In this document: piece after piece, positions 1-4,305 of the stretch | How positions within the stretch are numbered: position 1 is the first letter of the stretch | How the letters are laid out: each line of letters begins with the position of its first letter | DNA from: an uncultured Gemmatimonadota bacterium | Lineage (GTDB): Bacteria > JAAXHH01 | Assembly (NCBI GenBank): GCA_951812955.1 | Contig: OX638340.1 | Coordinates: 1,952,001-2,016,000 of the forward strand | DNA length: 64,000 bases | Direction: 5' to 3' | Notes under the pieces: generated by a model | What the model saw: only the letters and a program-made list of their open reading frames with translations | Told to the model about the DNA's origin: nothing | Database searches by the model: none | Program-made: the position numbers and the translations under genes

Positions 1-244
1 TTACTCGATGAGGGCGATCAAGTTTTTAACCACAGGCGACCGGTCCCGATGGCGTTCAAGATGCCATAGTGGACCAGCTCTACGAGCAGATCGGACGCTT
101 GAAGATGGAACTGAAGTGGCTAAAAAAGTTGCCCTTTCAACGCGTCACAGACGCCTGATGATCGATGTCGATACGCCTCGGCTTTCCATACGCTGTCATT
201 GCGAACTGATGGATCTTTCAAGGTCCAGCTTCTACCAAGAATAG
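1..244 (+). mobile_element. IS3-family transposase remnant: 3' end of orfA (frame ending at the TGA at 156-158), A_AAA_AAG slippery heptamer at 122-128, and only the first ~38 codons of the -1 frame orfB before a stop at 242-244
   Basis: The orfA-frame translation '...DQLYEQIGRLKMELKWLKKLPFQ' is the leucine-zipper C-terminus typical of IS3 OrfA. The -1 frame gives 'RLSIRCHCELMDLSRSSFYQE', which matches the conserved IS3 OrfB N-terminus (L-S-x-R-x-x-C-E-L-L-G-x-S-R-S-x-Y-Y). The canonical A6G frameshift motif sits exactly between the two frames. orfB is cut off where the sequence turns AT-rich. Confidence 0.55.
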
Positions 245-273
245 GACTTGCATAACATTAGCATGTCGGGCAG

Positions 274-1062
274 TTACAATGTATTACGGATCCTGTTCGC
301 TATACACTTGAATACCCATTCATTAGGATGGAGTTCATCATCCCAGAAATTCTTGTAATGACCTGGACTGTTACTAAGAAGATCACGAACATCTACGTAA
401 CGTACATAGTCATAGTTTACTGCCAACAACTGAAGCATTTCGTTGAACTTGTCTATCAGTACCTCCATCACCCTGGTAGCAAACCAAAGGTCATCGTGAC
501 TTTTTTTAATATTGTATCCCTTTTTCCTGAATACCGGATAGAGCCAAGGCCCCTTTACCTTTATCCAAAACTTGAACTTGCGTCCATCGGGAACTGGGTG
601 GCCATATCCATGGACGATTATCGGAATATCACTTTGGGGCCAATACACTAAACAAGCTCCCCTTATAACTTCGATAAGTTGCGAGTAGTAAGTACGAAGA
701 TAGCAGAATATCATTTTCTGGACTTCATTCGTGTCTAACGCACTATTTACATCTGATGCTGATGTACGATCGTTAAGCATTTTCTTCAGCTTCTTTGTCA
801 GATCATTGCCGCCACCGGAGAGGAGGACTGCTTTGGGTTTGCTATTGAGTTTGTGTAGTTTTTGTAGTTTTTTAAGAAGGGCTTTGTGTTGTTCTTGTGC
901 ATAGGCCATATCCTTGAGCGTGTCACCGTGTTTAGCTACACTTCTCACTTTGTATCCCATGCCCCTTAACCCCTCTAATACATCATCAGCTTGATTTGTA
1001 GAGTTTGGCAAATCGAACCATGAATCACCCTCCGCTACCAAGATTGGTTTTTGATTTGGCAT
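274..1062 (-). CDS. SGNH/GDSL-family hydrolase (lipase/esterase-like) in an AT-rich (~40% GC) islet
   Basis: Block I 'EGDSWFD' (GDS-x), block III 'SGGGNDL' and block V 'DDELHP' (DxxH) are present in the expected order. Composition is strongly atypical versus the ~65% GC of the rest of the window. Confidence 0.6.
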   Translation of the reverse strand: MPNQKPILVAEGDSWFDLPNSTNQADDVLEGLRGMGYKVRSVAKHGDTLKDMAYAQEQHKALLKKLQKLHKLNSKPKAVLLSGGGNDLTKKLKKMLNDRTSASDVNSALDTNEVQKMIFCYLRTYYSQLIEVIRGACLVYWPQSDIPIIVHGYGHPVPDGRKFKFWIKVKGPWLYPVFRKKGYNIKKSHDDLWFATRVMEVLIDKFNEMLQLLAVNYDYVRYVDVRDLLSNSPGHYKNFWDDELHPNEWVFKCIANRIRNTL

Positions 1063-1184
1063 GTTAGTTCTCCTCTATAGGTGGATTACTATAGGAACCT
1101 CTGATCAAGTCTACCCGCCCCGGGGAAGCTGATGTCACTCATCTTTCGCGGACGGTTTACGGTTAGATATTCAGATTGATTCCT

Positions 1185-1532: not shown

Positions 1533-1860
1533 GGTTGCTCCGGATTAAGGCAGGTAAACCTAGCAAAAATCGGACCCGGTATTTTCGTGTTTTTCATGTA
1601 AAGTGGTATGAATTACAATATGATGGAAAAAGAGTGACTTGTGTGTGAATTATCCGCTCAGCAAGAAGAATATTGCGCGAATTTTACGCATAGTGTATCA
1701 TATCGCCATCACGGCCAGCTCTCGATCGGCCTCCGGCGGGCATTCCAGCGCGTCCGCCCAACCTGAGCGTTTCACCCTCAGAAGGCGATCTATCCGGCCG
1801 GCCTCCGACGGGCGTTCCGGCGAGTCGACCTCCGGCCGCAGGAGCGCCGCATGCCGCAGG

Positions 1861-1899
1861 GATCACGGGCAAGGGTCACGGGCAAGGGTCACGGGAAGG
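1861..1899. repeat. Three tandem 13-bp direct repeats (GaTCACGGGCAAG / GGTCACGGGCAAG / GGTCACGGGAAGG) 30-70 bp upstream of the HK-RR fusion gene
   Basis: Read directly from the sequence. Further short direct repeats lie at 1729-1756/1800-1826 (GGCCTCCGrCGGGCrTTCC) and 1927-1937/1945-1955 (CGGTGAAGCGT). Confidence 0.7.
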
Positions 1900-1929
1900 A
1901 TGGATCTGTGACACGGAAAGGATGGACCG

Positions 1930-4305
1930 GTGAAGCGTGATACATCGGTGAAGCGTAAAGACGGACCGGGGCGGGAGATCGAGGCGCTGCGCGAACGCAT
2001 CTCGATGCTGAGCGCGGCAAGCCTGCGCATCAGCGCGAGCCTGGACCTGGAGACCGTCCTGCACGAGGTCATCAACAGCGCCCGCGCGCTGATCGAGGCT
2101 CGTTACGGCGGCATCGTCACCATCGACGAGTCCGGGCAGCCCCGGGACTTCATCACCTCCGGTTTCACCGACGCGGAGCACCGCCAAATGGCCGACTGGC
2201 CCGACGGGCCCAGGCTCTTCGAGCACTTCCGCGACCTCAAGGGCGTGCTGAGACTGCCGGATGCGCGCGCCTACGTGCGCTCGCTCGGCTTCGCCTCGGA
2301 CCGGCTGTCGTCCGGCACCTTCCTGGGCACCCCGATGCGCCATCGCGGCCTGCACGTCGGCAACTTCTATCTCGTCGAGAAGGAAGGCGGAGCGGAGTTC
2401 ACCAGCGAGGACGAGGAGATCCTGGTGCTGTTCGCCTCCCAGGCTGCGACGGCCATCGCCAATGCCCGCACGTACCAGGCCGAGCAGCGCGCCCGGGCCG
2501 ACCTGGAGGCCCTGGTCGAGACCTCGCCGGTGGGCGTCCTGGTCTTCGATGCCGGGACCGGCCGGCTCATGTCGTCCAATCAGGAGGCGAAGCGGATCGT
2601 GGAGGGCCTGCGCATGCCGGGCCGTCCCATGGAGGCGCTGCAGGAGGTGATCACCTGCCGGCGCGCCGACGGGCGCGAGATCGCACTGGAGAAGTTGCCC
2701 CTGTCGCAGGTGCTGAACCGCACCGAGACGGTCCGGGCCGAGGAGATGGTGCTCTCGGTCCCCGACGGACGAAGCGTCACGGCGCTGATCAATTCCACGC
2801 CGATCCACTCGGAGCAAGGCGCTGTCGTGTCCGTTGTGGTCACCATGCAGGACCTGGCGCCGCTACAGGAACTGGAGCGATTACGGGCGGAGTTCCTTGG
2901 CCTGGTGAGTCATGAGTTGCGCACCCCGCTCACGTCGATCAAGGGCTCGGCGGCCACGCTGCTGGATGCCGCCCCGAAACTCGACCCGGCGGAGATGCGC
3001 GAGTTCTGCCGCATCATCCTCTCGCAGGCCGATCACATGCGCGTCCTGATCAGCGACCTGCTGGACGCGGGCCGCATCGACACGGGCACGCTGTCGGTGA
3101 CGCCCGAGCCCTCCGAGGTCGCCGCCCTGGTGGACCGGGCGCGGACCACGTTCCAGAGCGGCGGCGGCAGGCACCCCGTACTGATCGACCTGCCGCCCGA
3201 TCTGCCACGGGTCATGGCCGACCGGCAGCGCATCGAACAAGTGCTGAACAACCTGTTCGCCAATGCCGCGCGGCACGCTCCCGAGTCCTCTCCCATCAGG
3301 GTCTCCGGGGCGCGCGACGGGGTGCATGTCGCGGTCACGGTACGCGACGAAGGCGCGGGAGTAGCGCCCGACCGGCTCCCGCATCTCTTTCGGAAATATG
3401 CCGGGCTCGAGGGCGGCGACCGCGAGTCCGGGGCTGCCGGCTCGGGGCTCGGTCTGGCCATCTGCAAAGGGCTGGTCGAAACTCACGGAGGGCGTATCCG
3501 GGCCGAAAGTCCGGGCATGGGCCAGGGCACGCGCATCACCTTCACGATCCCGGTAGCCGCCGAGGCCGCCGAGGCCGCCCGAGAGCCGGTTCGTACCGAC
3601 CCGCAAGACACCGGAGAAACTGGCGAGCCGACGCGCATCCTCGTGGTCGACGACGACCCGCAGACGCTACGCTACGTGCGCGAAGCGCTCACGGCGGCCG
3701 GCTACTCCGCGCTCGTGACCAGCAACCATGACGAACTGGCGAGCATTATACACGCCGAGCGACCCGAACTGGTCCTGCTGGACCTGCTGCTGCCCGGCAC
3801 GGACGGTATAGCGTTGATGGAACGCCTGCCCGAACTGGCCGAACTTCCGGTCATCTTCATCTCCGCCTACGGACGGGACGAGACCATCGCGCGGGCGCTC
3901 GATACCGGCGCCGCCGACTACCTCGTCAAGCCCTTCTCGACGACCGAGCTCGTGGCGCGGATCCGGGCGGCGCTGCACAGACGGGCCGATCCCGACCCCT
4001 TCGTGCTGGGCGAACTCGCCATCCACTACGATCGGCGAAGGGTGAGCACAGGCGGTGTACGGGTCGACCTCACCGCCACCGAGTATGAGCTGCTGCGCGT
4101 CCTCTCGCTCAACGCGGGACGGGTTTTGACCTTCGCCACCCTGATGCGCCAGGTCTGGGGTACGCGCGCCTACGCCAATCCGAAGCTCGTGCGCGCCTTC
4201 GTCAAGAAGCTCCGCCACAAGCTCGGCGACAATGCAGACAAGCCTATCTACATCTTCAACGAGCGCGGGGTCGGCTACCGAATGGCCCAGCCGGCCGAAT
4301 CGTAG
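1930..4305 (+). CDS. Hybrid sensor histidine kinase fused to a complete OmpR-type response regulator (GAF - PAS - HisKA - HATPase_c - REC - winged-helix Trans_reg_C)
   Basis: The H-box is 'LVSHELRTPLTSIKGSA'. ATPase motifs are 'NLFANAARH', 'VRDEGAGV' and 'GSGLGLAICKGLVE'. The receiver 'ILVVDDDPQ...LVLLDLLLPGTDG...YLVKPF' has the acidic pocket and the Lys. The C-terminus 'LTATEYELLRVLSLNAGRVLTFATLMRQVWG...YIFNERGVGYRM' is an OmpR/PhoB wHTH. A GTG start was chosen by the ORF track; an in-frame Met start further downstream is possible. Confidence 0.8.
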   Translation: MKRDTSVKRKDGPGREIEALRERISMLSAASLRISASLDLETVLHEVINSARALIEARYGGIVTIDESGQPRDFITSGFTDAEHRQMADWPDGPRLFEHFRDLKGVLRLPDARAYVRSLGFASDRLSSGTFLGTPMRHRGLHVGNFYLVEKEGGAEFTSEDEEILVLFASQAATAIANARTYQAEQRARADLEALVETSPVGVLVFDAGTGRLMSSNQEAKRIVEGLRMPGRPMEALQEVITCRRADGREIALEKLPLSQVLNRTETVRAEEMVLSVPDGRSVTALINSTPIHSEQGAVVSVVVTMQDLAPLQELERLRAEFLGLVSHELRTPLTSIKGSAATLLDAAPKLDPAEMREFCRIILSQADHMRVLISDLLDAGRIDTGTLSVTPEPSEVAALVDRARTTFQSGGGRHPVLIDLPPDLPRVMADRQRIEQVLNNLFANAARHAPESSPIRVSGARDGVHVAVTVRDEGAGVAPDRLPHLFRKYAGLEGGDRESGAAGSGLGLAICKGLVETHGGRIRAESPGMGQGTRITFTIPVAAEAAEAAREPVRTDPQDTGETGEPTRILVVDDDPQTLRYVREALTAAGYSALVTSNHDELASIIHAERPELVLLDLLLPGTDGIALMERLPELAELPVIFISAYGRDETIARALDTGAADYLVKPFSTTELVARIRAALHRRADPDPFVLGELAIHYDRRRVSTGGVRVDLTATEYELLRVLSLNAGRVLTFATLMRQVWGTRAYANPKLVRAFVKKLRHKLGDNADKPIYIFNERGVGYRMAQPAES

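Follow-up and report, generated by a model that had tools for sequence, protein, structure and literature searches.

In Escherichia coli, PhoB acts at pho boxes, tandem 11-bp units that each join a CTGTCAT core to an AT-rich tail and that replace the −35 element about 10 bp upstream of the −10 hexamer. From such sites, as at pstS and phoBR, it activates transcription in a class-II-like manner, and the two-component operon is positively autoregulated. In Actinobacteria, an MtrA site pairs two GTCACA/GTGAC-type hexamers, directly repeated every 11 bp (PMC4285127, PMC5650626), and the Streptomyces coelicolor site reads GT(G/A)ACC-N5-GT(G/T)AC (PMC5650626). In the hybrid two-component systems (HTCS) of Bacteroides, a histidine kinase, a receiver and a DNA-binding domain are held in one polypeptide (PMC11253607). 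Here we analysed positions 1540–1960 of a 64-kb stretch of DNA from an uncultured Gemmatimonadota bacterium (GCA_951812955.1, contig OX638340.1, positions 1,952,001–2,016,000 of the forward strand; hereafter the window), an interval that leads into a gene at 1930–4305 (+) encoding a GAF-PAS-HisKA-HATPase_c-REC-Trans_reg_C fusion protein (Pfam) of 791 amino acids.

A preliminary description of this DNA had pointed to four sets of repeats close to the start codon and proposed them as an operator through which the gene regulates itself. We consider it likely that the interval holds two layers of different age: a conserved module of direct repeats at 1634–1687, which is the candidate self-regulatory operator, and the flagged repeats, which appear to be young, variable and not an operator. 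The proposal thus survives in kind and moves in place. The interval does contain an OmpR/PhoB-type direct-repeat module that travels with the gene, the named repeats are not that module, and the candidate operator shifts about 200 bp upstream of them.

The interval was read directly and searched with Tandem Repeats Finder (TRF) and a repeat finder. The window protein has thousands of close relatives. Eight orthologous leaders were compared: L001, L002 and L083 (98% identity), L003, L084, L085 and L086 (85–86%), and L087 (79%). A wider family set comprised at least 80 loci from a genome scan, encoding relatives at 61–86% identity, with those outside the window's own clade mostly at 62–71% identity to the window protein.

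The module is composed of four 11-bp direct repeats of a tGTGAAT-type half-site on the gene strand, at offsets 0, +11, +32 and +43, and lies about 250 bp upstream of the start codon. Half-site A (1634–1644, GTGACTTGTGT) scores 8.2 bits; half-site B (1645–1655, GTGAATTATCC), 11 bp past A, is the best in the interval with 11.4 bits; half-site C (1666–1676, AAGAATATTGC), 32 bp past A, is degenerate; and half-site D (1677–1687, GCGAATTTTAC), 43 bp past A, scores 9.0 bits. The repeats therefore form two tandem pairs three helical turns apart. An iteratively refined position weight matrix (PWM) of the whole module places it at 1634 with 48.5 bits (43.2 bits with a 60-column model), the only match of at least 15 bits in the window, and all half-site matches of at least 5 bits within 1540–1960 fall between 1587 and 1695. 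Among the orthologues, site A is kept in L001, L003 and L084–L087, and AAGAATATTGCG does not differ between the window, L001, L002 and L003; L084–L087 have it too. In the four-leader alignment (window, L001, L002 and L003), the longer AAGAATATTGCG.GAATTT and the downstream GTATCAT are invariant as well.

Site D occupies the putative −35 position of the promoter assigned here. A weak −35-like hexamer, TTGCGC (1673–1678, +; 3 of 6 matches to TTGACA), overlaps the junction of sites C and D, and a −10-like TATCAT (1696–1701, +) follows 17 nt after it. TTGCGC falls below the 4/6 matches required by our consensus scan and was not reported by it; such a weak hexamer would fit an activator-dependent promoter. 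The −10-like element reads TATCAT in L084 and L085 and TATTAT in L086 and L087, similar hexamers follow site D in other phyla, and the module together with its −10-like hexamer is kept in every orthologue whose contig covers the promoter region.

Conservation and phasing of the module extend across the family. We counted the distances between occurrences of the half-site word [GA]TG[AT][ACT] on both strands of 79 upstream regions from at least eight phyla. On the gene strand, the counts exceeded expectation at 11 bp (41 observed, 2.4 expected, z = 23.5), 21 bp (20 against 2.3, z = 11.6), 32 bp (36 against 2.3, z = 20.9) and 43 bp (26 against 2.3, z = 14.6), and no such peaks appeared on the reverse strand of the same regions. 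When the set was reduced to one representative for each of 64 mutually unalignable leader clusters, the four peaks held (29, 13, 25 and 20 occurrences, respectively). In most loci, an AT-rich dip 160–240 nt ahead of codon 20 gives way to a GC-rich leader, and within this dip TGTGAA occurs 25 times on the gene strand and never on the other.

The refined family consensus reads tGTGAatTTtGtGTGA.tAta..G.cta.taT.GTGA.ttTTTcGTGAATTtt, in which site D is the best-conserved unit (family consensus cGTGAATT). A PWM scan of 585 kb on both strands with a cut-off of 25 bits gave 63 matches, 54 of which lie on the gene strand within 450 nt upstream of the gene. Independently, TRF picked up 11-bp-period repeats where the module lies in seven further leaders. 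Module and gene occur together in at least eight phyla, and pairwise homology between loci is often restricted to the module, the leader and the gene, with unrelated flanks. This recurrence suggests a horizontally transferred single-gene cassette.

Going by their names, the family loci come from Latescibacterota, Acidobacteriota, Gemmatimonadota, Alpha- and Gammaproteobacteria, Spirochaetia, Binatia, Nitrospirales and SAR202, with the taxonomy checked for three less familiar names. Many of the metagenome-assembled genomes (MAGs) bear sponge- or coral-associated names, and several gene copies per genome are common (four in CBDAOQ010000003, three in OZ219745). Literature searches for a sponge-symbiont family combining histidine kinase, response regulator and winged helix-turn-helix (wHTH) returned nothing specific, and no description of the family was found in the literature searched. 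The public gene calls of several members (P0006, P0008 and others) are over-extended N-terminally through the operator and leader; P0006, for instance, starts with MCELPLLQKEYCVNFY..., which is translated operator.

The presence of an OmpR-type domain in the downstream gene was borne out by strong Pfam matches (Response_reg, E 4e-26; Trans_reg_C, E 2e-19). The fusion protein is soluble, with no hydrophobic segment and a maximum 19-residue Kyte-Doolittle hydropathy of 1.28. The closest solved structures to its REC-wHTH part are MtrA (2gwr, E 1e-36), KdpE, RegX3, BaeR and PrrA. No NCBIfam model exceeded its own cut-off for the fusion protein, the MtrA model reaching 164 bits (cut-off 300) and the PhoB model 150 bits (cut-off 296), and for this reason we do not regard it as an orthologue of either regulator.

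Several features link the module to this winged helix. The recognition helix (KLVRAFVKKLR) is nearly invariant family-wide, and one of its residues covaries with the half-site: A stands at half-site position 5 in 2 of 20 sites from loci with His755, compared with 93 of 192 in the Arg755 group (Fisher p 7e-4, ignoring phylogeny), the His755 loci carrying C or T instead. Since homology between many pairs of loci stops at the module, leader and gene, no trans factor other than the gene product is known to be shared by all module-bearing loci. No paralogue of the gene was found within the window by tblastn at E 1e-5 or better. Taken together, the MtrA-like core and period, the nearly invariant helix, the covariation and the travelling of the module with the gene point to the fusion protein as the candidate for binding the module.

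A different host regulator of the OmpR/PhoB family, for example one responding to phosphate or envelope stress, might instead bind the module, or the module might be the end of a mobile element. Each host has many OmpR-family regulators with similar direct-repeat sites, the homology between loci is cassette-like, and an inverted module lies 3' of the gene in L005, L018 and L024. Against another regulator, the module is found with the gene in at least eight phyla whose flanking sequences are unrelated, where the gene product is the sole known common trans factor, and position 5 covaries with a residue of the recognition helix; the core is also unlike the CTGTCAT of pho boxes. As for a transposon end, most loci, the window included, have no inverted partner, which led us to reject this reading of the module, and the inverted copy in L005 belongs to a truncated paralogue. 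We judge this pair of explanations unlikely.

Further copies of the module were noted away from the gene's own promoter, at L005 5746 (−), L018 5028 (−), L024 5071 (−), L012 2411 (−) and L019 518–529 (+). The copy in L005 precedes the truncated inverted paralogue, those in L018 and L024 lie 180–250 bp 3' of the stop codon and are directed back at the gene, the one in L012 faces a large divergent open reading frame (ORF) that by eye only resembles hydantoinase_B/oxoprolinase, and the one in L019 is about 2 kb upstream of the gene.

Under the two-layer reading, promoter and leader of a two-component regulator that is soluble and made as a single polypeptide would both lie in the interval 1540–1960. 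In the old layer, the phosphorylated receiver would allow the protein's own MtrA/PhoB-like winged helix to bind the module as head-to-tail dimers, and the bound regulator would help RNA polymerase onto a promoter whose −35 element is poor. Positive autoregulation in the style of a pho box is suggested because site D sits at the −35 position. The young layer, made up of the 28-nt pair, the three 13-mers, the two 22-mers and the two 18-mers described below, would represent lineage-specific tandem duplications, most likely generated by replication slippage or unequal recombination, which would have lengthened the GC-rich leader from about 210 to 353 nt (site A to codon 20).

A number of observations weigh against this reading of the old layer. 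A clear module is absent in about 20 of the 79 loci. The −35 and −10 elements are consensus guesses, and the consensus scan favours another pair at 1591–1619. We looked for a uniform spacing between site D and the best −10-like hexamer across the family and did not find it: the distance ranges from 10 to 39 nt across phyla, with clusters at 12–14 and 22–24 nt. The His/Arg755 covariation comes from five loci in about three clusters. The PWM was trained and scored on the same loci, so that only the distance histogram is independent of it, and the loci are linked by descent and horizontal transfer, which means that the counts do not represent independent events.

All four flagged repeat sets are real, with coordinates off by no more than 2 nt. 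The three 13-mers at 1861–1899 (+) are present as described, although they are not identical copies: unit 1 (1861–1873, GATCACGGGCAAG) has one mismatch, unit 2 (1874–1886, GGTCACGGGCAAG) is exact, and unit 3 (1887–1899, GGTCACGGGAAGG) has two mismatches, effectively a 1-nt deletion. TRF reports them as an array at 1858–1899 (period 13, 3.2 copies, 93% matches, score 68, consensus AGGGTCACGGGCA). The imperfect pair of about 27 bp was found as 28 nt at 1727–1754 and 1799–1826 (+), with 86% identity and no chance matches across 100 shuffles of the window; the repetition is confined to these 28 nt, and the 44 nt separating the copies are unrepeated, so there is no full 72-bp duplication.

The two shorter repeats were confirmed as parts of longer units. 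The AAGGATGGA(T/C)C copies (1896–1906 and 1918–1928) sit within a 22-bp tandem duplication at 1890–1933 (+; TRF 2.0 copies, 86%, score 67), which copies a module of Shine-Dalgarno (SD) sequence plus start codon. The CGGTGAAGCGT copies (1928–1938 and 1946–1956) sit within an 18-nt unit duplicated at 1921–1938 and 1939–1956 (+; 83% identical), which from GTG 1930 on is in frame and supplies six extra N-terminal codons. In 500 dinucleotide-preserving shuffles of 1540–1960, a TRF score of 60 or more was never reached (shuffle maximum 53). No further copy of the 13-mer, the 28-mer or any segment of 1700–1960 turned up in the rest of the window or, close orthologues aside, among 80 family loci, and 13 near-matches to the 13-mer (up to two mismatches) were scattered single copies. 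A dispersed repeat, a repetitive extragenic palindromic (REP) element or a miniature inverted-repeat transposable element (MITE) was rejected on these grounds.

The preliminary description proposed these repeats as a candidate operator, an idea to be refuted by their absence or lack of conservation upstream of orthologues, and it fails for them because copy number and spacing already vary between 98% and 85% identity. The window carries three 13-mer cores, as does L003 (86%), where their spacings are 13 and 9; L001, L083 and L002 carry two, L084 one, and L085, L086 and L087 none. In the four-way leader alignment, the insertions and deletions fall precisely on repeat units. The 28-nt repeat is present once in L001, whose lone copy aligns with copy 2 of the window and the sequence beyond it, and is missing in L002, which lacks the entire GC-rich block matching window positions 1705–1838. 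The 18-bp duplication is shared by the window, L002 and L084 and is not found in L001 and L083.

The 22-bp duplication occurs also in L001, L002, L084 and L086, with a single copy in L087; being common to 85% orthologues and absent in L087, this SD-start duplication is older than the other units. L087, which is syntenic and has an intact sigma-54 activator upstream, is without any of the flagged repeats, and the leaders of the remaining family members contain nothing similar to them. The flagged repeats are thus absent from two 85% orthologues, from the syntenic 79% orthologue and from the rest of the family. Their periods of 13, 22 and 18 bp are not the 10–11-bp phasing of OmpR/PhoB-type sites, and on neither strand does any of their units reach 5 bits with the PWM of the family half-site.

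At the same place, leaders of other clade and family members contain tandem duplications that are unrelated to those of the window. These include a unit of about 26 bp in three copies in L084 (1045–1125, GCCGGTTGCCGGGG...), a unit of about 46 bp in two copies in L004, GTTCCAACAA occurring twice in L087 (1105–1140), and, in L003 (1596–1700), a decayed duplicate of the SD and the first ~25 codons, some 100 bp ahead of the true start codon.

The 13-mer array, alone or together with the 22- and 18-mers, might still provide a secondary wHTH site downstream of the promoter, where it would work as a roadblock in autorepression or by looping with the module. On the minus strand, the 13-mers read CGTGACC (CGTGATC in the imperfect first copy), which has the GTGAC core in common with site A and fits the MtrA hexamer of S. 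coelicolor, G/T-T-G/A-A-C-C (PMC5650626), and GTCACGGGC in the window resembles the GTCACAgcg-like MtrA boxes of M. tuberculosis (PMC4285127). Furthermore, L003 retains three GATCAC cores even though the rest of the unit has diverged, and both points count against dismissing the array. The spacing is nevertheless 13 bp (13 and 9 in L003) rather than 11, the units lack AT-rich tails and stay below 5 bits with the PWM on both strands, and copy number falls from three to zero across orthologues of 98–79% identity. What the 85% orthologues keep of the unit is the pre-SD module ACGG(G/A)AAGGA and not GTCAC, and inverted TCAC cores showed no enrichment across 38 non-redundant leaders of the family (3 observed, 5.1 expected). 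Such a secondary site is distinctly improbable in our view, and weak secondary binding at the 13-mers likewise has a low probability.

The lengths of the duplicated units offer an account of the long leader. The putative GC-rich 5' leader (1702–1929, +) is about 130–140 nt longer than the family norm, and the distance from site A to the residue-20 anchor is 353 nt in the window, compared with a norm of about 210 nt. The extra 28-nt copy with its 44-nt spacer (72 nt), two 13-mers (26 nt), the 22-mer and the 18-mer add up to 138 nt, close to the difference of about 140 nt, and owing to this match we read the flagged repeats as recent products of slippage or duplication, by which a tolerant leader and N-terminal tail have grown longer. 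They probably lie in the transcribed leader and first codons, 160–250 bp downstream of the −10-like element, and are most likely neutral or just modulatory.

GTG 1930 is likely the start codon, given that an SD sequence AAGGA (1918–1922, +), a 7-nt spacer and a TTG or GTG start recur in L001, L002, L003 and L084 and that most homologue N-termini begin about 10–15 residues ahead of a conserved EIEALRERIS. The repeats do overlap this codon, as had been described; the further idea that translation starts downstream, at GTG 1948, is possible and not favoured. With the 18-bp unit, a variable N-terminal tail becomes longer by six residues (KRDTSV). We rejected a coding extension through ORF 1639–1911, which is in frame with the gene but separated from it by a TGA at 1909–1911; this ORF has no Pfam match and overlaps the AT-rich promoter, and the indels of its orthologues are not multiples of three.

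The flagged repeats might alternatively tune translation, through the duplicated SD and start or through a G-quadruplex (G4) in RNA or DNA. Copy 1 of the 22-mer duplicates AAGGA, the 7 nt and a GTG (1908), and so yields a 10-codon out-of-frame upstream ORF (uORF; 1908–1940, VTRKGWTGEA and a stop) that overlaps the main start in another frame and is also found in L001 and L002. Within the 13-mer array, 1859–1895 forms the sole canonical G4 motif (G3N1-7 x4) on either strand of the window. Yet L003 has the uORF only in an open-ended form and L087 lacks it, and the motif, common to the window and L002, is missing in the seven other orthologous leaders (L001, L083, L003 and L084–L087). Folding of the leader RNA was no better than that of shuffled controls (z +0.82 and −0.61), and Rfam gave no match to the leader at E up to 1, on which grounds a riboswitch or other known structured leader RNA was ruled out. 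A translational role for the repeats therefore appears very unlikely, and we retain the view that they are by-products of duplication.

Two short words are commoner than expected in the non-redundant GC-rich family leaders, about 10–40 nt before the SD: CCGAA (12 against 4.0, z = 4.4) and, with a weaker excess, GGTCC (11 against 5.7, z = 2.4).

Upstream of the interval, positions 1185–1532 (−) hold a 115-amino-acid ORF that matches only the first ~45 positions of the Sigma54_activat domain and is a truncated remnant of a divergently transcribed sigma-54 activator. This activator appears intact in L087, where its product runs off the end of the locus, and is broken differently in L001. Window positions 1–1170 form an AT-rich block of about 40–45% GC, compared with 65–70% in the gene, and contain a GDSL-lipase-like ORF at 274–1062 (−). 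At about 66–244, an end of orfA and start of orfB of the IS3 family were recognised by eye only, with no match to Pfam (ORF 8–244) or NCBIfam (frame 2–244). The block has the appearance of foreign DNA that took the place of most of this activator gene.

Overall, these results position the module as a well-supported candidate for an autoregulatory operator of a known kind, set in an unusual and apparently horizontally mobile single-gene context. They also illustrate that repeats which catch the eye beside a start codon may be no more than evolutionary noise, the probably functional ones here being degenerate and AT-rich. A soluble fusion of sensor kinase and regulator with its own phased operator recurs here at 62–71% identity in at least eight phyla, mostly in host-associated MAGs; if the protein recognises its own module, the pair would amount to a portable, insulated signalling circuit, and the gene family may report a feature shared by sponge and coral holobiont environments. 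More tentatively, as an idea we find plausible and hold at somewhat less than even confidence, gene and module may constitute a self-contained, self-activating 'one-gene two-component system' cassette, spread horizontally among unrelated phyla with marine-invertebrate (sponge or coral) hosts and often present in several copies, whose operator co-evolves with the recognition helix and for which leader duplications are one route of retuning after transfer.

Set beside described systems, the young layer resembles the variable number tandem repeat (VNTR)-like variation of bacterial intergenic regions, in that 13–22-bp units vary in copy number among near-identical strains. We considered phase variation on this account: copy number does vary among close strains, but position does not fit. 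Unlike the repeats of VNTR switches, those of the window neither lie between the −35 and −10 elements nor shift the frame, the 13- and 22-mers being in the leader downstream of the putative −10 and the 18-bp unit, the only coding one, being in frame. The fusion protein shares with Bacteroides HTCS the union of kinase, receiver and DNA-binding domain in a single polypeptide, here according to Pfam, whereas HTCS are transmembrane proteins with a periplasmic sensor and an AraC-type output, and the fusion protein is soluble, with GAF/PAS sensing and a Trans_reg_C output.

MtrA boxes and the module are alike in their core and 11-bp phasing. In contrast to MtrA/MtrB, one protein unites the regulator with its kinase and with GAF/PAS sensors, and four repeats (0, 11, 32 and 43) with AT-rich tails stand at the gene's own putative promoter. 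Pho boxes share with the module the tandem 11-bp units of core and AT-rich tail at what is here a putative −35 position, from which we infer autoregulation here, and differ from it in their CTGTCAT core, where the module has tGTGAAT, and in lacking the extra 10 bp that separate the module's two boxes.

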